Assembly (NCBI GenBank): GCA_000004695.1
Contig: CM000150.2
Coordinates: forward strand, 1,248,001-1,312,000
From: Dictyostelium discoideum
Taxonomy: Eukaryota
Length of the DNA stretch: 64,000 nucleotides
Direction of reading: 5' to 3'
The notes under the pieces are model-generated. The model saw only the letters and a program-made list of their open reading frames with translations. It made no database searches and was not told the origin of the DNA. The translations under genes and the position numbers were made by a program. Of this stretch, positions 6,932 to 32,571 are shown piece by piece. How positions within the stretch are numbered: the stretch's first letter is position 1; each line of letters starts with the position of its first letter.

Positions 6932-9146
6932 TCATTTTGCTAAAGGTAATACACCAAATGTTGATTGGCAAATCTTTGAAAATGTAACAGGTATAATGTT
7001 ACAAGATTTAAAAATTATTACACCATTCCCACCATCAAATCCATTTAGTCCATTAGTTACATCATTTGATGTTAGTCAAAATCAAATTGCAGGTCAAGTT
7101 GATGAATCATGGTGCTCAGTTTTATTAACTTTAAATAAAAATTTATTCACTGGTGTGATTCCAAATTGTTTTTATTGTTACTTGAATATTCAATCAATTG
7201 GTAATAGCTTTGCTCAAAATAATTTTGATAATTATAATACCACAAATAACAAATGTGGTTATGGTAAGTAAAAAAAAACTTAAAATTGATTTCTATATAT
7301 ATATATGTATACTATATTAATTTTTTTTTATTTTTTTTTATATATATATTAATATATAGATATCATTGTACCATATGTTTATTATAATAAAACATCAACA
7401 TTATTGACACTTAGAGGTAAAAATTTAGGTTGGGTACAAACTAATTTTAAAACATCAACTTGTGTAATTATTTTCACTGATCGATTTACTGTAGTTGGAT
7501 GTACAGGAACATATATGAATGTAACATTTGTAAATCAAAATTTAAATTTTACATTATCATTAGATGGTACAGAACCAATAATTAGTAATGTTATTCAAAC
7601 AAATAATACATTTATAATTAGTGGATCCTATTTTGCATATGAACCATCAATTATCAATGTTACAATTGATGGAGAGTCACCATTAAATTGTGAATTTACA
7701 AATTCAAGTATAATTCCAACATTTTATAGTATTCAATGTGATATTGGATATCCAGTGGTTGAATATGGGTTAAAGAATTTAACAGTACAAGTAAATAGTT
7801 TAGTTTCAAAACCATATGAATTTAGTCTTGATTATACTAAAGTGCCATGTCCAATTTCAGATTGTAATGGTAATGGTATTTGTAATGATCATATTGGTGT
7901 TTGTGAATGTTTTAATGATTGGAAAACAATTGATGATGAAATTTGTACAGTTGCAATTCATTATTTATCAGCATATACTCAAACATCAGATATCGATGGT
8001 GGTATCATTAATTTATATGGTTTCTTTGGTGATATTCATAATGATTATAAAGTTTTAATTGATGGTATTCAATGTCCAATCGAAGTTGCACCAACATCAA
8101 CAGTTTTTACAATTTCAGTTGACTCTGGTACAATTGGTACAAATTCATCAATTGAAATCATTCAAAATGATTTATCATTCCATGGTACAATCTATCCATA
8201 TGAAAATTTAATTAAAGAATGTCCATCGAATTGTAATGGTATCAGCAATGGTAAATGTAATAGTACAACTGGTGAATGCACTTGTAATGAAGGTTTCATC
8301 GGTGTTGATTGTATCAAACTCACAAATTATACATTACCAACCATCACATCATCAATTTCAAATGTTGGTTTATTATTTAAAAGTGAACAAACTGTTTTTA
8401 TAGCTTCATTTTATTCATTTGTTGAAGTTGATTACACTGGTACCATTATTAAATCAGTTGTAATAAGTTCATGGGAACCTGAAAATATTAACCAAGGTAT
8501 TAAATACACTGGTTCATCGTCAAATAGTGATGGTGTTTTTGAAATTACATTTTTAAAAGTACCAACAAATCAACAATTTTCATTTGCAGGTAATGAATTC
8601 AACATTGGAGCAGGTGGTGCTAAAATGTCAATAACAGTTTCAAATTACACATATTCAAACCAATCAAATTATTTAGTCGCGGCTATGCAAGCTAAAGCTG
8701 AGTCAGATCCAAGATCACCAATTCAAAATAAGTGTAATAATGGTACAATCGTAATTACATCACAATCAAATAGTAATTTAACTTTAAATAATTATAATTA
8801 TTTTACAATTTCAAAAGATGCTAAAAGATTATCAATTAGATTACAAGATAGATTAATATCAGATGGTCAAGCAACTTTTATGGTAAATCAACTTAATATT
8901 CAACAACCTGATCATAGTTTATTATTTGGTATGTCACTCCCACATTGTGGTAAACAATGTTCAATCGATGGTCCTGATTTTATTGTTAACATTGAATCAA
9001 ATTATAAAGTTTTAAGTTCATGTTCACCACAACCAACATCAACACCAAAATCAAGCTCTGAAGAACCATCTTCTTCATTAAAACAACAATCTTTAATTTC
9101 TTTTATTTTAATAATATTTTTAATTTCATCAATTATTTTAAATTAA
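5447..9146 (+). CDS. Secreted or GPI-anchored LRR / IPT-like / EGF-like receptor-like protein, paralog 1. About 7 exons (approx 5447..5533, 5674..5815, 5901..6048, 6157..6286, 6371..6821, 6931..7263, 7361..9146)
   Basis: Exon 1 encodes a signal peptide (MKLNIFYLFVIVLTLSNINNVFG) and ends at a GTAAAT donor. Short exons chained by GTAAGT..AG junctions carry plant-type LRR-like units (FDVSQNQIAGQVDESWC, LNKNLFTGVIPNCF). The large last exon carries an IPT-like beta domain and two EGF-like modules (CPISDCNGNGICNDHIGVCECFNDW; CPSNCNGISNGKCNSTTGECTCNEGFIGVDC). It also carries the family C-terminal motif SLPHCGKQCSIDGPDF, then a Ser/Thr/Pro stalk and a hydrophobic C-terminus (LISFILIIFLISSIILN) that suggests a GPI signal. 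Confidence 0.6.
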
Positions 9147-12112: not shown

Positions 12113-14650
12113 ATGGAGGATCTACTTAATCTTTTTAATAGAAAAATTAATTTTGAAACAACCTTAAATAGTAATAATAATAATTATAATAATAAAAGTA
12201 AAAAAAAAAATAACTCTAATCAACTTAAAAATCATTTCATTCAATTAATTGATAAAATTTCAAATTCGTTAAATAGTAATAATAATGATTTTAATAATAA
12301 TTTTAAGTCTTTACAAATTGTCGAATTATTTAATTTAGTTAAATTATTACCATTTAAAGAAGAAAAAAAATTAGAAAATAATAATAATAATAATAATAAT
12401 TATAATAATTATAATGATGATCAGGATTATGATGATGATGATTATTATGATAATTTAATATTATATAACACAATTAGAAAAGAAACAATCGAATTAATTT
12501 TTAGAATTTTACCAAATATTTTAAAAAGGCAATCATTTCAATATGATAGTTCATTAATGACAACAATTTTCTCAGTTTCCGATCAACCAATATCATTAAA
12601 ACTATTAATCGCAATTCATACAACTAATTTAATTAATGATTATATATTATTTGAAAATTCTCAATTCAATATATTTATACCATATATTCACGATATATTT
12701 CATTATATTATATTATCTTTAAAAGTAATTATTATTATTTATTATTTAAATAATAAAATTATAAACATATTAATATTAATATTTTTATTTATATAAAAAA
12801 AGGAAAATAATTTAAAAATTAAAATTGAAATTTTAAATTTATTAGAATTAATAATTAATAATTTAAAAAATAATAATAATAATAATAATAATAATTTAGA
12901 ATCATATTTAAATAATTTAATAAATTTATTAATTGAAAATATAATAATAAAAAATAATAATGATGATGATAATAATATAGAACTTTATAATCAAATTTTA
13001 GATAATAATAATGAATTTTATATAATTAGAGAAAAAAGTGGTTTAATTTTAAAATTATTATCAAAAAATTATTTTAATAAAATAATTGAAAATTTAAATT
13101 TAATTTCAAATAATAATAATAATAATAATAATATTTATATAAAAGAAGGAATTTTAGAATGTTTTAATAAAATTAATAAATTTGAAAATGAAGAATTATT
13201 AAAAATTTTATTTGAAATTTATTTTATTAATCAAAATAATAATTCAAAAATTGAATGGATTTATTTTTCAACTATAATTAATAATTTATCAATAATTTAT
13301 AATAATGAAAATAATCAAAATAATAATAATCAATATTTTGAAATTATTTATAAAAAATTAAATGAATTAATTTTAATTGATAATGAAATTATAAAAATTT
13401 CAATATTTAATTTAATAAAATCAAATTATAAATTATTATCAACCGATTTATTTATTAAATTAATTTCATTAACATTACCAAAATTAAATAATAAAATTCA
13501 ATTTAAATCATTTATAGAATTATCAAAATTAATAATACCAAATTTAAATTTTAAATCATTTAAAATAATAATTGAATTATTAACATTACAATTTAATTAT
13601 TCAAATAATAATAATAATAATAAATATTTATATTTAGAATTATTTTCAATTATTATAAAAAATTTGGATTCTGAAAATTTTAAAAATTTTTATAGTAAAT
13701 TACCATTTGAATTATTTGATTTAATTTTATTAAAATTGGATTCATTAATTAATTTATATCAAGATTTTTTAGAAATAAAATTTATTGAACCAATTATAGT
13801 ATCATTGGAATTTTTAAATGAATCATTAGAGAATTTAGTAATTATAAATAATATTGATTCAATTTATTATTATAATATTATTAATATTATAATAAAATGT
13901 TTAGAAATTATTAAACCAAATGAAATCATTTTAAAATCATTAATTTTATTATCAAACCTTTTTAATTTAAATTGGTCATCAATTTCAACAATGGTACCAA
14001 TCTTTGAATTAACACAATTGGATAAAATTTTAAAATTAATTTATAAATTTTTAATTTATGATAAAAGATTATTAATTATTAAAAATTCATTTATTGTTTT
14101 AAATAATTTATTAAATTCAAATTATTCAAAATTAGTTCAACCATATTTAAATGAATTAATTTTAGAAATTTCTTTAAATTGTTATTATTTAAATAATAAT
14201 TATAATAATAATAATAATCAAAATAATCAAAATTTTAAAAATTTACAATTAAAAGAAATTATTTCAATTACTTTTAGTAAACTTTTATTAAATATTGATC
14301 AATATACAATTGAAAATTTTAAATGTTTTTCAAATTTAATTGATAATTCTTGGTGTTCATTTATTTTAAATGATAATCAATCAATTTTATTAATTTTAGA
14401 TATAATTTGGAATGATCCATCATTAATATCATTTAATTCAAATCAAACTTTTAATTTAAAAACAACTTTATTAAAATCAATTAATAATAACCATAATAAT
14501 ATAAATTTAAATAATTTTAATAATAATAATAATAATAGTTTAATAATTTTATTAAAATTAAAATTAAAAGAAATTAAAACAAATTCTCCAATTATTTTGG
14601 AAAAATTAAAAAAATTTTTAAATTCTGATTTATTATTTTTATTTTCTTAA
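12113..14650 (+). CDS. Asn-rich low-complexity protein of unknown function, two exons: join(12113..~12724, ~12801..14650)
   Basis: The ORF 12113..12796 contains a GTAATT donor after ...LSLK, and the intron ends ...aaaaaaaAG at about 12800. The same reading frame then stays open through 12801..13663 into the annotated ORF 13664..14650. It is AAT-encoded poly-N and Asp-rich (DDQDYDDDDYYD). Helical repeat segments hint at an ARM/HEAT-like fold. I recognise no diagnostic motif. Confidence 0.45.
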
Positions 14651-23012: not shown

Positions 23013-23527
23013 ATTTTTTTTTTTTTTTTTTGTTGTTTTTTCAAAATATTATAATATAACCAAAATAATATAAAAAAGAATAATAAAAAATATCTTTCTA
23101 TAAAAAACAACAGGTTTTATTTTTATTTATATGGGGACACAAAAATAAACCACCCAAAAATACACAAAAAAAAAAAAAAAAGTTTTAAATCAAAAAAACA
23201 ATTACTTTTTTTTTTAAAATATTTTGACAGGATGTAAAAATTTAAGAATATTTTTATTTATTTTTTAAAATAGGACAATACCTAGCAGTTTTGTTTTTTT
23301 TTTTTTTTTTTTTAATATAAAAAAATTAAAAAAAAAAAAAAAAAAAAAAGTATAAATTTAAGGTTAAAAGTTAAACTTTTAAATTAAAAAAAAAAAAATA
23401 AGAGTTAAAACAAAAATAAAAAAATAAAATAAAAAAAAAAAATTAAAAAAAAAAATAAAATAAAATAAAATAAAATAAAATTAAAAATTATTTTATTAAT
23501 TTATAAGTTTTTATAATAAATTTAAAA

Positions 23528-25446
23528 TGAAATTAATATCAGTATTAATTACATTTTTATTAGCTACAGTGATTTATTCACAAAGTAAAAAAAATTTTAC
23601 AATTTGATTTTTATTAATTTTATAAACTAAATTTGAAACTAATTAGCCAAACAAATTTTTTTTTTTTTTTTTTTTTTTTTTATTTCTTTAATTTTTTTTT
23701 TAAAAAAATAAAATTAGCCAGTCCAGCAACTTTAAAATTTACTGTTCAAGTTTATGATCAATTCCCAGGTTTTAATAATAATTTTGAACCTGGATTAGGT
23801 AATGCTATTACCGGTTTAATTAAATCAACTTTAAATTCAACATCGCGTGTACCTGAATTGGTTTCAACAGAAGCTCGTATTGTTAAAAATATTAATGGTG
23901 GGATTATAAACCCATCATTATTCCCATACTTTTTCAGTCCACAACAAGATTCAAGTTTACCAGGTCAAAATTCACCATTAAGTCTTGATTTAATTTTCAC
24001 ATATGATACAACTAGAAAAATTTATGTTTATGATAATCAAAACTTTTTCCCAAGTAAGTAAATAAATTATAATAATTTTATTTTTTAAAAATTTTAATAT
24101 TGATTAAATTTTAATTTAATATTATAGTTGATAATCAAGGTTTTGATGTTGATCCAGCAAAAAGAATTTATTTAAATGAGAAAAAAACATATCATAATTA
24201 TCATTTTTGTATGAAAATGAATACTGTTTTTACTTATAAAGGTTATGAAGTATTTAATTTCCGAGGTGATGATGATGTTTGGTAAGTAATTATTTAAAAA
24301 AAAATATATTTTAAATAATTAATAATATTAACATGATTTTTATTTTATTTTTTATTATTTTAATTATTATTATTTTTTTTATTTTTTTTATTTTTAAAAA
24401 AAAAGGGTATTTATTAATAATAAATTAGTTATTGACCTTGGTGGTTTACATAGTCCAATTGGTACAAGTGTAGATACAATGACTTTAGGTTTAACAATTG
24501 GTAATTCTTATAATTTTGATCTATTCTTTTGTGAACGTCATACTGGTAAGTTTTATTATTTTTTATTTTTTTTTTAAAAAAAAGGTAATTTTATTTTATT
24601 TTATAAATATTTATAAAAATTATTTTTTTAGTTGGTAGCACAATTAAAATTGAAACCAATTTATTATTTTATTGTCCATTTAAAGATTATTGTGGAGTTT
24701 GTCAAGGTGATGGTAGTTCATGTTGTAATCCATTAACAACTTGTAATGATAATAATCAATGTACAATTGATTCATGTCCATCAGCAAATACAATTATTGG
24801 TCCAGGTTCAATCCCTAATTATTGTTTTCATACACCAAAAATTAATACAAATCCAATTGATATTTGTTTCAATTATCAATGTAATTCATCAACTGGTAAT
24901 TTCGATCCAATTCCAATTCCATGTCTTGATAGAAGTTCTGAATGTTTATCAACAATTGGTTGTAATTCTACTGTTGGTTGTCAATATGAAAGTATTTGTA
25001 ATTCAAATGTTTGTAATATTCAAAATCAATGCTCATCAAATGGTACTTGTGTTCCAAAATCATCAAATGACTGTGGAATTGAATTAGATGGTCAAGTTGA
25101 TAAATGTAAAATTTATTCATGTGATTCAAATGGAGGTGTTGGTTGTATTAAAGAAGATAAATGTAAACCAAGTAGTAATCCATGTATTTCAACTCAATGT
25201 AATGCTACTAACGGTCAATGTTATGAAACTCAAATTCCAGGTGATATTTGTGATTGTGGTTGTGGTATTCCAGAAAATAAATGTAAAGTATCATGGTGTA
25301 CACCAGAAGGTATTTGTCAACCAAAATTCAAATCTGAAATTGATGATAATAACTCTTGTACATTAGATTCATGCGATCCATGTACTGGTATTATCTCTCA
25401 TATGACCGCACCACAATGTTTAAGTTGTAATCAATGTTCAAATTAA
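23528..25446 (+). CDS. psi-family secreted protein (PA14 domain plus Dictyostelium-type Cys-rich repeats), copy A, 5 exons (approx 23528..23585, 23718..24056, 24128..24281, 24407..24548, 24641..25446)
   Basis: It has a signal peptide ([19 protein letters not shown]). Exons 2-4 carry PA14-like motifs ([53 protein letters not shown]). The last exon holds about 10 Cys-rich repeats (C.IDSC..., CNS..C, ...[17 protein letters not shown]...). All introns are phase-consistent GTAAGT..AG. It resembles the PsiA-like family; no specific member is assigned. Confidence 0.65.
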
Positions 25447-25640
25447 TTTTTAAAAAATAAAATAAAAATGAGAAATAATTAAAATAATTAAAACAAATAA
25501 ACATTAAAATGATATTTAGGTTTTAAATTTAAATTCTAAAATCACTATTAATTCTAACAATTTTAATCATTTTTATTTTTTTAAATATTTTTAAAAATTA
25601 AAACCATAATTAATAATTATTTTTTTAATTAAATAATATT

Positions 25641-25870
25641 TAACAAGATGTGACAAGAATTGAAATTTTTGGCACAATTTGGTCAAGTCACTAATTAAAG
25701 TTACCCCATCATGATATTTTTTAGGTGAGATGTGGGGTGGGATTGAATTAAGGGTTGTAAGACAGTTTTTTTTTTTTTTTTAATTTGATGGTTTTTTTTT
25801 TTTTTAACTTAAACTTTTTTTTTTAAGTTGGGAAACCCATAAGTGGGAAAAAAAAAAATTAAGAAAAAAA
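25641..25870 (+). promoter_or_regulatory. Conserved non-coding block with a G-box-like core (gagatgtggggtgggattgaattaagggttgtaag), about 140-370 bp upstream of psi copy B. It is duplicated at 31071..31260 upstream of copy D
   Basis: The block runs about 90% identical to 31071..31260 (tgtgacaagaattgaaattttt...gtcaagtcactaattaaagttacc[c/t]catcatga...gagatgtgggg[t/a]ggg[a/g]ttgaatta[a/t]gggttgtaaga). This G-rich island sits in otherwise poly-A/T DNA. G-box/CA-rich elements bound by GBF are established activators of post-aggregative Dictyostelium genes. A truncated third copy of the 5' part lies at 27561..27620. Confidence 0.4.
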
Positions 25871-26008: not shown

Positions 26009-26884
26009 ATGAATAATAACTTATTATCAGTATTAATTACATTTTTATTATCTACAGTGATTTATTCACTAGGTATAATTTTACAATATTATTTTTTTAA
26101 AAAATTATTATTTTATAAACTATTTTTACTAATTTTTTTTTTTTTTTTTTTTTATTTTTTTTTTTTTTTTTTTTATAAAAAAAATTAGCTAATCCAGCAA
26201 CTATAACATATTCTGTTCAACTGTATGACCAATTCTCAGGCTATAACAATAATTTCCAAACTAATGTAACTGGGGCTAGAGTTACTGGTTTAGTTAAATC
26301 AACTTTAAATTCAACGACTCGTGTACCTGAATTAGTTTCAACATCAAATGGTGGTTTAAATGATGCAGGTCATATTTTGAATCCATCATTATTCCAATAC
26401 TTTTTCAGTCCACAAATAAATTCAAGTTTACCAGCTGAAAATAATCCTTATTCTTTTGATTTAGTTTTCACATATGATAAAAATAGAAATACATATGTTT
26501 ATAATAATGAAGATTTTTTCCCAAGTAAGTAAATAAATTTTAATTTTTAATAAAATACAAATTTAAAATATTAATAAAATAATATAGTTGATCGTAAAGG
26601 TTTTGATATTGACCCAGAAAAAAGAATTAATTTAAATGGTGCAACCTATCATAATTATCATTTTTGTATGAAAATTAATTCTGCTTTTACCTATCAAGGT
26701 TCAGAATATTTCAATTTCCAAACTGACCATGAAGTTTGGTAAGTAATTGTTTTAAAAAAAAAACTATAAAATTATAAAATCAATAATAAATAATATTTTA
26801 AGTGATAAATATTAATAATATAATTTTTTAATTATTTATTAATATTATAATTATAATTTTTATATTTTTATTTTTATTATTACT

Positions 26885-26929
<45 letters not shown>

Positions 26930-27386
26930 ATTTTAATAGGGCATTTATTAATAATAAATTAGTTATTGATCTTGGTGGTATACATGGTCCAATAGCTGAA
27001 AGAATTAATACAAAAACTTTAGGTTTAACTATTGGTCGTATATATAATTTTGATTTATTCTTTTGTAATCGTCAAACTGGTAAGTTATATTATTTAAAAA
27101 AAAAAATAAAAAAAAAAAAAAAAAATAATATAAAAAAAAATTTTTTTTGAATTGGATAAATAATGTAAAAAATAAATTAAACCATAATTTTTAATTTTTT
27201 TATTTGTATTTTTTTTAATTTTTACTATTTTTATAAAACTAATTTTACTATATAATTAATTTTTTTAAAAAAGTTGGTAGTAAACTTAAAATTGAAATAG
27301 ATATAACTTATTCATGTCCATTTAGAGATTTTTGTGGAGTTTGTTTAGGTGATGGTAGTTCTTGTGCAGGTGGAAGAATTAAATAA
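26009..27386 (+). CDS. psi-family PA14-domain protein, copy B. It is truncated (PA14 only) and ends after ..[17 protein letters not shown], with the Cys-repeat tail missing
   Basis: It keeps the same 5-exon layout as copy A ([22 protein letters not shown] | GT..; [24 protein letters not shown]..; [51 protein letters not shown]; [28 protein letters not shown]; [31 protein letters not shown]). The frame hits TAA at 27384..27386, where copies A and C continue into about 270 codons of Cys repeats. The downstream sequence is unrelated and GC-containing. It may be a functional short isoform or a truncated pseudogene. Confidence 0.5.
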
Positions 27387-27509
27387 AGTCTATTCCTGTA
27401 GATTCATAAAAGAAATTATTATCGGGGTTGGAAAGTTAGTAAAAATTTGAAAAAAAATTCTTTAAAGGGCTACGCCTTAGGAAATAGACCTAACAAGCCA
27501 CCAAAGATG

Positions 27510-27542
<33 letters not shown>

Positions 27543-27815
27543 AAATTTTTTAAAAAAATTGTGACAAGAATTGAACACTTGACTTTAATTTTATTGTAGG
27601 TTCGATTCTCAGATAAATGAAATCAATATCTATTTTAATTTTTTTTTTTTTTTTAAATAATAGCCCAATTGTTAGTTGCTTCTCCTTGAGATACTAGATC
27701 TCATTACAATATCCATTTTAATATTAATGATTAGTTTTTTTATTTAATTTTGTTTGAAACTTTAGTTTCAATAGAATTATTTTGTAGGTAATTTTAAAAA
27801 TAAAAAAAATATAAT

Positions 27816-27854
<39 letters not shown>

Positions 27855-27989
27855 TTTAAAAAATTAAATCAATTAGAAAATAATGGAATTTGAATTAAAA
27901 ATTAATAATGATAATTATAAAAATAATAAATAATGGACACTTTAAAAATTAAAAACATTATTTTTTGAAACCCAAAATTTTTTTTTTTT

Positions 27990-28221
27990 AATTTTAAAAA
28001 AAAAAAAAAAAAGATGGCAATGAAGTGTGATCACACCGTATTTCTCATTAAAAAAAAAGAATATTTTTAAAGTCGATAACAAATTATTTTTTTTTTTTTT
28101 TAATATACAAAATCTTAAATACCAAAAAAAAGGGCGATGTTTCATATAAAGTTTCCAGACGGTTTTTTTTTTATTAAAAAAAATCAAAAAAAATTAAATC
28201 ACGGCTTTTTTTAGATTTTTT

Positions 28222-28261
<40 letters not shown>

Positions 28262-28360
28262 TCGCCATGAATTATGATCAATATTGATGTTGGACGGTTT
28301 TTTTTTTTAAAAAAATCTAATACAAAATTAAATCACTTCTTTTTTTTTTTTTTTTTTTGT
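27990..28360. repeat. Tandem array of about 3 related units (110-130 bp each). Each has a GC-containing core (gatggcaatgaagtgtgatcacaccg / gggcgatgtttcatataaagtttccagacgg / gatcgccatgaattatgatcaatattgatgttggacgg) followed by T-runs and ...aaaattaaatcac(gg/tt)cttttttt
   Basis: Direct comparison of 28011..28130, 28131..28255 and 28256..28350 shows shared framework with diverged cores. The array lies between psi copies B and C. Its identity is unknown; it could be a transposon-terminus remnant or a small-RNA gene cluster. Confidence 0.45.
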
Positions 28361-28790
28361 TTTTAATTTTTGTTTATTAAGTAATTTGAAAAAAAAAAAG
28401 AAATCGTTTTTTTTTTTTTAGTTTGAACATTGGGGTGTTTTAAAAAATAAGTGGAGATATTTAGAATTTGATAAAAAAAAATTAAAAATAACCAATGATT
28501 GTGAAAAAAAATAAAAAAAAAACTTTGTTTCCAAAGATAAAAAATTATTCTATTAAATTGATATATTATTTGAAAAAAAAAAAAGTAAAGGTTGAACATA
28601 CTGAAGATTTTTAAAAAAAAAAAAATTAAAATAAATAATTTTAAAGTTTTGATTGGTTAATTAAAATTAATTTTAATTATATTTTAAAAAAAAAAAAAAA
28701 ACTGTTAATTTAGTTTAGTATAAATAGTTTAGTAAAAAAAAAAAAAATTCAGTTTGTTTTAAAATAAAAAACTAAACAATAATATTTAAA

Positions 28791-29559
28791 ATGAAATTAT
28801 TATCAGTATTAATTACATTTTTATTAGCTACAGTGATTTATTCACAAAGTAAATAAAATAATATTGTTTTTTCAAATTATTTTTATAAAAACTAATATTA
28901 AAACTAATTTTTTATATTTTATTTTCTTTTTTTTTTCTTTTTTTTTAAAAATTAGCTAATCCAGCAACTTTAACATTTACTGTTCAAGTTTATGATCAAT
29001 TCCCAGGCTATAATAATAATTTCCAAACTAATGGTGCTGGTGCAAGAGTTACTGGTTTAATTAAATCAACTTTAAATTCAACAACTCGTGTACCTGAATT
29101 GGTTTCAACAGCTACTGGTGGTTTAAATGGAGTAGGTCTTATATTGAACCCATCATTATTCCCATACTTTTTCAGTCCACAACAAGATTCAAGTTTACCA
29201 GGTCAAAATTCACCATTAAGTCTTGATTTAGTTTTCACTTATGATACTACTAGAAATATTTATGTCTATAATAATCAAAACTTTTTCCCAAGTAAGTAAA
29301 TTAATAACAAATTTGTTTTTTTATAAAAAAAATAATATAAAATTTATATTAATATAAAATTACAATAAAATATAAAATTAAAATTAATAAAATAATATAG
29401 TTGATAATCAAGGTCTTGATGTTGATCCAGCAAAAAGAATTTATTTAAATGGTGCTACATATCATAATTATCATTTTTGTATGAAAATGAATACTGTTTT
29501 TACTTATAAAGGTTATGAAGTATTTAATTTCCAAGGTGATGATGATGTTTGGTAAGTAA

Positions 29560-29600
<41 letters not shown>

Positions 29601-30869
29601 AGTATTAATTTTTTATTTATTATTATAACTATTTTTAATTTTATTTTTTTATTTTAAAAGGGTATTTATTAATAACAAATTAGTTATTGATCTTGGTGGT
29701 GTACATGGTCCATTAGCTGCAAGTGTTGATGCAACAACATTAGGTTTAACAATTGGTAATTCTTATAATTTTGATTTATTCTTTTGTGAACGTCAAACTG
29801 GTAAGTTTTATTATTTTTTATTTTTTTTAAAAAAAAAAACCTATTAATTTATTTTATTAATTTTTTTATTTAATTTTTTTTTTTTTAAAAAAAAGTTGGT
29901 AGTACAATTAAAATTGAAACCAATTTATTATTTGTTTGTCCATTTGAAGATTATTGTGGAGTTTGTCAAGGTGATGGTAGTTCATGTTGTAATCCATTAA
30001 CAACTTGTAATGATAATAATCAATGTACAATTGATTCATGTCCACCAGCAAACACAACTATTGGTTCAGGTTCAATCTCTGATTATTGTATTCATACACC
30101 AAAAATTAATACAAATCCAATTGATATTTGTTTCAATTATCAATGTAATTCATCAACTGGTAATTTCGATCCAATTCCAATTCCATGTCTTGATAGAAGT
30201 TCTGAATGTTTATCAACAATTGGTTGTAATTCTACTGTTGGTTGTCAATATGAAAGTATTTGTAATTCAAATGTTTGTAATATTCAAAATCAATGTTCAT
30301 CAAATGGTACTTGTGTTCCAAAATCATCAAATGACTGTGGAATTGAATTAGATGGTCAAGTTGATAAATGTAAAATTTATTCATGTGATTCAAATGGAGG
30401 TGTTGGTTGTATTAAAGAAGATAAATGTAAACCAAGTGAAGATAAATGTCATGTCGTATCATGTGATTCATTAACTGGTTCATGTATTACAACTCCACTC
30501 GAAGATCCATTAGCTGGTTTACATTTATGTTCAATTGCACGTTGTAATTCATCAACTGGTGAATTTACATATGATCCAATTATTTGTACACCAAGTAGTA
30601 ATCCATGTATTTCAACTCAATGTAATGCTACTAACGGTCAATGTTATGAAACTCAAATTCCAGGTGATATTTGTGATTGTGGTTGTGGTATTCCAGAAAA
30701 TAAATGTAAAGTATCATGGTGTACACCAGAAGGTATTTGTCAACCAAAATTCAAATCTGAAATTGATGATAATAACTCTTGTACATTAGATTCATGCGAT
30801 CCATGTACTGGTATTATCTCTCATATGACCGCACCACAATGTTTAAGTTGTAATCAATGTTCAAATTAA
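28791..30869 (+). CDS. psi-family PA14 plus Cys-repeat protein, copy C, 5 exons (approx 28791..28848, 28964..29290, 29401..29553, 29662..29803, 29897..30869). It has one extra 57-codon Cys-repeat unit relative to copy A
   Basis: Over the last three exons it is near-identical to copy A (ORFs 24746..25087 and 30010..30351 differ at only 2 of 113 residues). Exon 2 is much more diverged, which suggests gene conversion of the 3' part. Extra in-frame segment 30430..30600 ([17 protein letters not shown]...[14 protein letters not shown]) is inserted between CKPS and SNPCISTQC compared with copy A. Confidence 0.65.
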
Positions 30870-31377
30870 TATTTTAAAAAAAAATAAATAAAAATAAGAA
30901 ATTATTAAAATAATTAAAACAAATAAAAATTAAAATGATATTTGAATTTGAAATTTAATTTTTAATTTCATAATTTAATTTACTAATTATTTTTTACAAT
31001 TTTAATTATTTTTATTTTTTTAATAATTTTAAATATTTATTAATTAAAAAAAATTTAACAAGATGTGACAAGAATTGAAATTTTTGTTCACTTGGGACAA
31101 TTTGTTCAAGTCACTAATTAAAGTTACCTCATCATGACCTTTTTTGTGTGAGATGTGGGGAGGGGTTGAATTATGGGTTGTAAGATATTTATTTTTTTTT
31201 TTTTAACTTGATGTTTTTTTAAACTAAATTTTGGAAATCCATATGTAAGAAAAAAAAATAATAATTAAATTTATTTAGTATAGAAAAATTTTATTTTAAA
31301 TTGATTTATTTAAAGCAAAAAAAAAAAAAAAAAAAAAAAATTAAATTTATTTATATTAAACTAAATAATATTTATAA

Positions 31378-32571
31378 TGAAATTATCAGTATTATATTTT
31401 TATTATCTACAGTGATTTTTTCACAAGGTATAGTTTTACAATTTTATTTTTTAAAAATTATTTTTAAAATTATTACTGCTCTTTAACTAATTTTTTTTTT
31501 TGTTTTTTTTTTTTAGCTTATCAAGACATTTTAACATTTAATGTTGAACTTTATGATCAATTCCCAGGTTATAATAATAATTTCCAAACTAATGGAACTG
31601 GTGGTAGAGTTACTGGTTTAGTTAAATCAACTTTAAATTCAACAACTCGTGTACCTGAATTAGTTTCGACATCAATTGGTTCAAATGATGCAGGTCATAT
31701 TTTGAATCCGTCATTATTCCAATACTTTTTTACTCCACAATTTGATTCAAGTTTACTAGGTGACAATTATCCATATGATTTTGAATTAGTTTTAAAATAT
31801 GATAAAAATAGAAATACATATGTTTATAATAATGAAAACTTTTTCCCTAGTAAGGAAATAAATTTTAATTTTTAAAAAAATACAAATTCAAAATATTAAT
31901 AAAATAATATAGTTGATGGTCGAGGTTTTGATATTGACCAAAAAAAAAGAATTTTTTTTAATGGTACTATATATCATAATTATCATTTTTGTATGAAAAT
32001 GAACTCTGCTTTTACTTATCAAGGTTCAGAACTTTTTAATCTCCAAACTGACCATGAAGTTTGGTAAGTAATTATTAAAAAAAAAAATTAAAAAATTAAA
32101 AAATTATTTATAAAAAATATTTTAATTAATATTAATAAAATTTTTTTTTTTTTTATTTTTGATTATTTTTGTTACTATTTATTTTACTATTTGTAATTTT
32201 TTTTTTTTTTAAAAAAAAAAGGGTACTTATTAATGAAAAATTAGTTATTGATCTTGGTGGTATCCATGAAATTTGATGATACACCAATCCAATGTACAAT
32301 CAAATTTCATTTCACTTACCAAACTAATGGAGCTTGTGGTAGAGTTACTGGTTAATTAAATCAACTGGTGAATTTACATACAAGTAATCCATATATTTCG
32401 ATCCAATGTCATTCTACCAATGGCCAATGTATTAATACTCAAATTCCAGGTGATATTTGTGATTGTGGTTGTATAACAGAAAATAAATGTAAAGTATCAT
32501 GGTGTACACCAGAAGGAATTTTTGAACCAAAATTCATATCTGAAATTTCAATTTCCATAAAGAATAAATAA
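31378..32571 (+). pseudogene. Decayed psi-family copy D. It has a frameshifted signal-peptide exon, a mutated donor (GTAAGG), an in-frame stop after ..[10 protein letters not shown], and internal deletions joining PA14 fragments directly to the last Cys repeats
   Basis: atgaaattatcagtattatatttttattatctacagtgattttttcacaag has small deletions relative to copies A to C and gives a stop after 12 codons. Exons 2-3 are still recognisable ([46 protein letters not shown]; [51 protein letters not shown]). Exon 4 hits TGA. What follows is scrambled fragments (..TNGACGRVTG*, then [43 protein letters not shown]) that match the last repeats of copy C. Confidence 0.6.

Follow-up and report, generated by a model that had tools for sequence, protein, structure and literature searches.

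Class I RNA genes and other noncoding RNA genes of Dictyostelia need a DUSE approximately 60 nt upstream (PMC7919456). The TREs of Dictyostelium discoideum are placed strictly with respect to tRNA genes, about 50 bp upstream for TRE5 and about 100 bp downstream for TRE3 (PMC5006619). Both systems bear on a stretch of AT-rich DNA between two psi genes on chromosome 1 of D. discoideum AX4. The original prediction for this stretch was either the remnant of a mobile element that had truncated one psi copy (copy B) or a cluster of small pol III-type RNA genes. Here, the locus was analyzed within a window of 64 kb and compared with its counterparts in other Dictyostelium assemblies. The spacer is probably non-coding DNA that evolves neutrally. 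It would combine two independent events, a patched psi deletion and a local tandem duplication, with a T-arm-like motif that is there by chance.

The flagged stretch (positions 27387-28790 of the window) is the intergenic spacer between psiS and psiB. Copy B is psiS, which is annotated as a PA14-only protein of 267 aa. A model of five exons was used for this gene (26009-26072, 26189-26524, 26588-26738, 26940-27079, and 27274-27386), and its translation matches the UniProt entry "Protein psiS"/PA14 domain-containing protein of AX4 at 100% identity along all 267 aa. Copy A is psiE (23527-25446, 500 aa), and copy C is psiB (28791-30869, 552 aa), with its ATG at 28791; both are exact database matches.

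Relatives of psiS from other Dictyostelium assemblies were found by protein search, and five loci were compared. L001 (GCA_054883475) is near-identical to AX4, L002 and L003 come from GCA_054859355 and GCA_054859385, L004 comes from "D. cf. discoideum" (GCA_054859205), and L005 comes from D. dimigraforme. L002 and L003 have a four-gene array in common, in the order full-length, truncated, full-length, truncated. The psiS reading frame is kept in three divergent strains, and exons 2-5 are more conserved than introns 1, 3, and 4. The fourth psi copy, copy D (31378-32560), is scrambled in AX4: exon 4 stops short near 32270, and behind it (32320-32546) pieces of the psi N-terminal and Cys-tail sequences lie in shuffled order. 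Its counterparts in L002 and L003 are called as genes of 332 aa and 210 aa, and psiB is fused to copy D in the gene models of one assembly (769 aa). The features of the spacer are collected in Table 1.

Table 1. Features of the psiS-psiB spacer and its borders, in window positions
Feature	Position	Strand	Description
psiS last exon	27274-27386	+	psiE/psiB homology ends at 27365; AGGRIK codons and TAA stop (27384-27386) come from replacement DNA
Replacement ("filler") segment	27366-27509		~145 bp, 0.326 GC, non-coding; no other match in window
A-run closing the replacement segment in AX4	27510-27545		31 A, T, AAAA (36 nt)
Island TGTGACAAGAATTGAA	27560-27575	+	Matches 25649-25664 and 31064-31079
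T-arm/B-box-like GGTTCGATTCTC	27599-27610	+	Chance-level match
Unit U1	28013-28130		Core GATGGCAATGAAGTGTGATCACACCG...; weaker third copy; conserved in L002 and L003
Unit U2	28131-28259		Core GGGCGATG...CCAGACGG, then T10, AAAATTAAATCACGGCTTTTTTT, A37
Unit U3	28260-28360		Core GATCGCCATGAATTATGATCAATATTGATGTTGGACGG, then T11, AAAATTAAATCACTTC, T19
Proximal psiB upstream region	28361-28790	+	Contains AACATTGGGGTGTTTTAAAAAATAA (28426-28450)

The similarity of psiS to psiE and psiB stops at position 27365. When compared with the window by BLAST, 27315-27365 matches 24673-24723 and 29937-29987, and the paralogs have ...GGTGATGGTAGTTC(A/T)TGT in common before the breakpoint. Past the breakpoint, psiE and psiB run on into the Cys-repeat region (TGTAATCCATTAACA...), whereas psiS reads GCAGGTGGAAGAATTAAATAAAGTC.... 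The abrupt change of character that had been noticed after the stop codon of copy B is real, but the break itself is situated at 27365/27366, which is 21 nt before the end of the psiS stop codon. The replacement DNA provides the last six codons of psiS (AGGRIK), the stop codon, and an AATAAA (27382-27387). An unrelated patch evidently replaced the Cys-repeat tail of psiS. The proposal that foreign DNA would explain the loss of this tail is borne out, since the non-homologous DNA starts exactly where the similarity to psiE and psiB ends and also supplies the stop. The GC content of the segment 27366-27509 (0.326) compares with 0.278 for 27387-27530, 0.153 for the rest of the spacer, and 0.273 for the psiS exons.

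On the other side of the patch, the ancestral 3' flank resumes at 27560 with TGTGACAAGAATTGAA. This is the sole island that the psiS-psiB spacer has in common with the psiE-psiS and psiB-D spacers, and psiE and psiB each have a copy of it about 200 bp 3' of the stop codon. Those two other spacers, psiE-psiS and psiB-D, can be aligned with each other over their full length (74%, E=1e-106). With the breakpoint at 27366 and the flank resuming at 27560, about 1 kb was replaced by roughly 180 bp. The two junctions, …TCTTGTG/CAGG… and …AATTGTG/ACAAG…, have a TGTG microhomology.

Most of the replacement segment is flanked by an inverted repeat, consisting of GTCTATTCCT (27388-27397) and AGGAAATAGAC (27479-27489). 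This repeat is partly kept in other strains. A C>T change in L002_D would allow a G-U pair, and a G>A change breaks the repeat in L003_B. Folding of the segment gave z-scores of -0.54 and +0.28, no better than shuffles.

The replacement segment is present behind both the B-type (psiS-type) and the D-type truncated genes in L002 and L003. AX4 27202-27494 aligns with L002 9006-9329 at 78.6%, and AX4 27216-27466 aligns with L002 3943-4188 at 84%. The occurrence of the segment behind both types of truncated paralog in two divergent strains indicates that the truncation is old. To judge from these alignments, the truncation and its patch would either predate the duplication that gave the two gene pairs or have spread between the pairs by gene conversion. 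A possible trace of the segment in D. cf. discoideum is marginal with a D-type query (p ~0.03) and not significant with the AX4 query.

The C terminus encoded by the patch, C-A-(G/S)-G-R-I-K followed by the stop codon, is identical across AX4, L002, and L003. Substitution identity over the replacement segment is 0.873 for L003 and 0.908 for L002. For psiS introns 1, 3, and 4 it is 0.85-0.91, for the 63-bp intron 2 it is 0.98, and for psiS exons 2-5 it is 0.93-0.96. The segment thus changes at an intron-like rate. Alignment of the B- and D-type copies over the segment requires several 1-nt gaps, which disrupt every reading frame and so indicate that the segment is non-coding. The longest open frame over the segment (27402-27596, 65 codons) was considered as a coding frame and rejected; it is interrupted in the paralogs by 1-nt indels. 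Taken as a gene, psiS is a paralog that was truncated long ago and whose stop codon is conserved, not a decaying pseudogene.

The replacement segment is treated here as DNA that filled a deletion, its source being either filler DNA that was captured in the course of repair or a fragment of a mobile element. A mobile-element origin is unproven and is disfavored by the context. Under it, 27366-27545 would be what is left of the 3' end of a poly(A) retroelement or of a retroposed cellular RNA, inserted together with a 1-kb deletion that truncated the psiS ancestor, and we consider this unlikely. Insertions of non-LTR elements with an associated deletion are known. The left boundary of the segment is sharp, the segment is much richer in GC than the spacer, and its A-rich end measures 36 nt in AX4 and has a similar run in L003. 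However, neither L002_B nor the D-type copies have the A-run, and runs of this kind are ubiquitous in the local DNA. No target-site duplication could be read from the sequence beyond the TGTG microhomology, and no second copy of the segment was found in the window or in L001-L005 (roughly 130 kb of Dictyostelium DNA). No transposon domains were detected in the 10 of 13 long window ORFs (250 aa or more) that were scanned with Pfam. Neither the 64-kb window nor the orthologous loci contain a tRNA gene, against the strict placement of TREs (PMC5006619), and because the window has none, a TRE origin is disfavored. When the most conserved 18-mer of the segment, ATTATTAWCGGGGTTGGA, was used to scan a metagenome collection that seemingly holds no Dictyostelium DNA, 33 matches were obtained, all of them chance matches of 19-27 nt on contigs of 30-54% GC. 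We give little credence to the idea that a poly(A) retroposition hit a protein-coding exon remote from tRNA genes and that the segment is its tail. If true, retroposition into the psiS ancestor would break the rule that D. discoideum non-LTR elements strictly target tRNA genes, and a retroposed tail with its own stop codon and poly(A) signal would have created psiS as a PA14-only paralog kept by selection. A deletion patched with unrelated DNA is the reading followed below.

Downstream of the patch, a T-arm-like motif had been pointed out. The motif is present, as GGTTCGATTCT at 27599-27609 with one mismatch to the B-box consensus GGTTCGANTCC, but only at the level of chance. With one mismatch allowed, 0.33 matches are expected per window, and at least one match was seen in 26 of 100 shuffles. 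ARAGORN found no tRNA genes in the 64-kb window or in L001-L005, and none with the thresholds relaxed to 80%. Matches obtained when introns were allowed contained "introns" of 118-395 nt and were dismissed as artifacts. No A box (TRGCNNAGTGG) lies 30-60 nt upstream of the B-box-like site. The only A-box-like site nearby, at 27661 with two mismatches, is downstream of the motif, and sites of this kind occur at chance frequency (50 versus 43 expected). The T-arm-like motif is a chance match. It falls in 27467-27870, a stretch that is missing from L002.

The T-arm-like sequence, as GTTCGATTCT, is also nearly the reverse complement of AGAATTGAAC (27567-27576, in the TGTGACAAGAATTGAA island), from which it is situated 24 nt downstream. 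The two give a 10-bp hairpin with one mismatch, which is also found in L003.

The three tandem units are located about 470 bp past the A-run, in the psiB upstream region, and are unrelated to the psiS truncation. From their alignments, they are true diverged tandem copies. The prediction of three such units holds strongly for U2 and U3. Their composition-aware local score is 42.2, whereas random AT-rich segments from the same window reach 27.6 at most, and their gapped score of 48.5 was equalled by none of 1500 null segments. U2 and U3 are in register 134-135 bp apart, both for GACGG with its T-run and for AAAATTAAATCAC..CTTTTTTT. U1 and U3 are collinear with a gapped score of 33.2, which is reached by 0.2% of the null segments (p ~0.002), and 17 of 21 nt match at their starts. 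Similarity between U1 and U2 is not significant. The pattern that had been described for every unit, GACGG followed by T(9-11) and aaattaaatcacNNcttttttt, is seen in U2 and U3 but not in U1, which ends in ...CACACCGTATTTCTCATT followed by A9.

All three units occur in the same order in L002 and L003. Upstream of its psiB counterpart, D. cf. discoideum has a full unit (L004 13163-13250: GATGGCTATGAATTATGATTAATACAGGCCACAAGACGG, T11, ...AAAATTAAATCAC), which corresponds in position to U3, and a second, partial one. At least one unit is therefore old, and the copy number rose by local duplication. Substitution identity of the units is 0.914 for L003 and 0.885 for L002, compared with 0.83-0.96 for the psiB introns, 0.91-0.92 for the rest of the spacer, and 0.96-1.00 for the psiB exons. 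The GC cores, with identities in the two strains of 0.71/0.90 for U2, 0.87/0.79 for U3, and 0.95/0.95 for U1, are no better conserved than their surroundings. The U1 core is identical at 36 of 38 positions in both divergent strains, which is above the spacer average on a sample too small to mean much. The units evolve like introns, with the proviso that neutral-looking divergence among close strains has limited power against weak constraint on short motifs.

Two further observations concern the sequence of the units. AAAATTAAATCA occurs six times in the window, versus 1.16 expected, and three of the six copies are in the psiS-psiB spacer on the + strand (27860, 28190, and 28324). Two of the spacer copies are in U2 and U3, and the third is at the edge of the stretch deleted in L002. 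A derivation of the units from a conserved element 3' of psiE was considered and set aside. The cores of U2 and U3 resemble GGGTGGGATTGAATTAAGGGTTGTAAGACAG+T16 (p ~0.007 and <0.002), which is suggestive only; the psiB-D version of the element is not resembled, and the T-run gives much of the score.

The units were also weighed as genes and as regulatory elements. As small pol III RNA genes, or as DUSE-dependent ncRNA genes, each would consist of a structured core and an oligo-T terminator. A T-run does follow each GC-richer core (A9 in the case of U1), and the cores are kept in three divergent strains. However, T-runs follow the cores on the opposite strand as well, with homopolymer runs every ~90 nt. 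The window contains 362 A- or T-runs of at least 9 nt, a density of about 11 per kb of AT-rich DNA; the 1.4-kb spacer has 19 of them. With runs this frequent, a T-run after a GC-richer island is expected, so the "oligo-T terminators" mean nothing. In the folding check that had been proposed, the three cores, folded on both strands (six folds), have z-scores of -0.26 to +1.73, no better than shuffles; fold z-scores as a whole span -0.67 to +1.73. RNAalifold on 10 cores from four strains returned 0 pairs, so that the copies show neither covariation nor a consensus structure. The 3' ends of the cores are GACGG or TCATT, and there is no ...CUGU 3' end and no conserved end-joining stem. The DUSE was sought as [AT]CCCA[CT]AA, which is expected approximately 60 nt before a TGTG box or the start of the RNA (PMC7919456). 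No exact DUSE is present in the spacer or anywhere between 25842 and 31171, and the window total is 7 versus 9.1 expected. A look-alike with one mismatch, ACCCAAAA at 27970, is 43 nt and not ~60 nt before U1 and is not conserved in L002 or L003. The units contain no A or B box, and Rfam matches none of them. At the gathering score, Rfam gave 0 matches in the whole window, and at E<=10 in 27000-29000 it gave just two low-complexity matches. Core conservation, at 0.71-0.95, is no better than that of introns. The predicted cluster of pol III-type small RNAs, with no tRNA among the candidates either, fails every test run, and we find it barely credible. In the D. discoideum genome, an oligo-T run behind a GC-richer island is no evidence for a pol III gene.

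It is also highly improbable that the unit cores are repeated cis-regulatory modules, i.e. transcription-factor sites of the psiB promoter that were multiplied by duplication. GC-richer islands in Dictyostelium spacers are often regulatory, the units are situated 430-780 bp upstream of the psiB ATG, and D. cf. discoideum also has one unit in front of its psiB counterpart. Against this, the units have intron-like substitution rates, with U2 and U3 cores at 0.71-0.90, and their copy number varies between lineages. The region upstream of psiE, which is paralogous to that of psiB, has no units; a sensitive BLAST comparison of it with the psiS-psiB spacer gave low-complexity matches only. Local tandem duplication of spacer DNA is the reading that we prefer for the units.

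Large indels separate the strains. L002 has no equivalent of 27467-27870 (~400 bp), including the A-run, the TGTGACAAGAATTGAA island, and the T-arm-like motif. AX4 is without 183 bp that are present in L002 and L003, at 27931/27934. These large indels are evidence for stretches of the spacer that may be dispensable. The L002 deletion is apparently located between two AAAAATT(T/A)AAATCAATT-like motifs.

In the proximal psiB upstream region, a candidate promoter element of psiB is AACATTGGGGTGTTTTAAAAAATAA, which lies ~350 bp upstream of the ATG and is near-unchanged in L004 (~13336-13360), in surroundings that are ~72% identical. A GC-richer island of ~120 bp (25640-25765 and 31054-31180) is found 3' of each full-length psi gene, ~270 bp before the next truncated gene. 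This island, ...GGGACAATTTGGTYAAGTCACTAATTAAAGTTACCCCAYCATGAT...GTGAGATGTGGGGTGGGGTTGAATTAAGG, also occurs in L002 (~2620-2740 and ~7700-7790) and in L004 (12222-12320). It is kept between paralogs and strains, and partly in D. cf. discoideum. Its G-rich part, GAGATGTGGGGTGGG, may be a G-box-type promoter element, which it resembles.

Under the preferred explanation, an ancestor of psiS and the "D" copy would have lost most of the Cys-repeat part of its last exon together with the first ~200 bp of the 3' flank, ~1 kb in all. The place of the deleted stretch would have been taken by ~145-180 bp of unrelated DNA (27366-27545), which would happen to bring six codons, a stop codon, and an AATAAA. 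With these supplied, a PA14-only protein could still be made, and it would have been kept since. Separately, a spacer piece of 120-135 bp in the distal psiB upstream region would have been duplicated locally to give three head-to-tail copies, which would then have drifted. The A- and T-runs around the GC-richer cores would be ordinary Dictyostelium homopolymer runs and not terminators. All this is of little consequence: existing annotation already lists psiS as a short PA14-only protein, and the spacer shows the behavior of neutral DNA.

When the locus is compared with known systems, the units are like the Class I RNAs and DUSE-dependent ncRNA genes described by Kjellin et al. in 2021 (PMC7919456) in being short (~40 nt) and GC-richer than the AT-rich spacer around them, with T-runs, and in occurring in several copies. 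They differ in lacking a DUSE ~60 nt upstream, a terminal stem, a ...CUGU 3' end, and any conserved structure. The likeness to a tRNA gene or an isolated B box lies in GGTTCGATTCT, which fits GGTTCGANTCC with one mismatch, but there is neither a cloverleaf nor an upstream A box, and the motif is gone in L002. The replacement segment recalls the TRE5/TRE3 non-LTR retrotransposons by its terminal A-run and by being richer in GC than the spacer; fragments truncated at the 5' end are typical for that family. In contrast to these elements, it has no tRNA gene nearby, its A-run is not common to the paralogs, and its orientation and distance to the B-box-like motif suit neither TRE5 nor TRE3. A deletion with filler DNA at a repaired break differs from the psiS event in that the latter is old and has drifted junctions. 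As in such a deletion, homology in psiS is lost abruptly within an exon, a short unrelated stretch stands in for ~1 kb, and the homology of the 3' flank resumes behind it, with TGTG microhomology.
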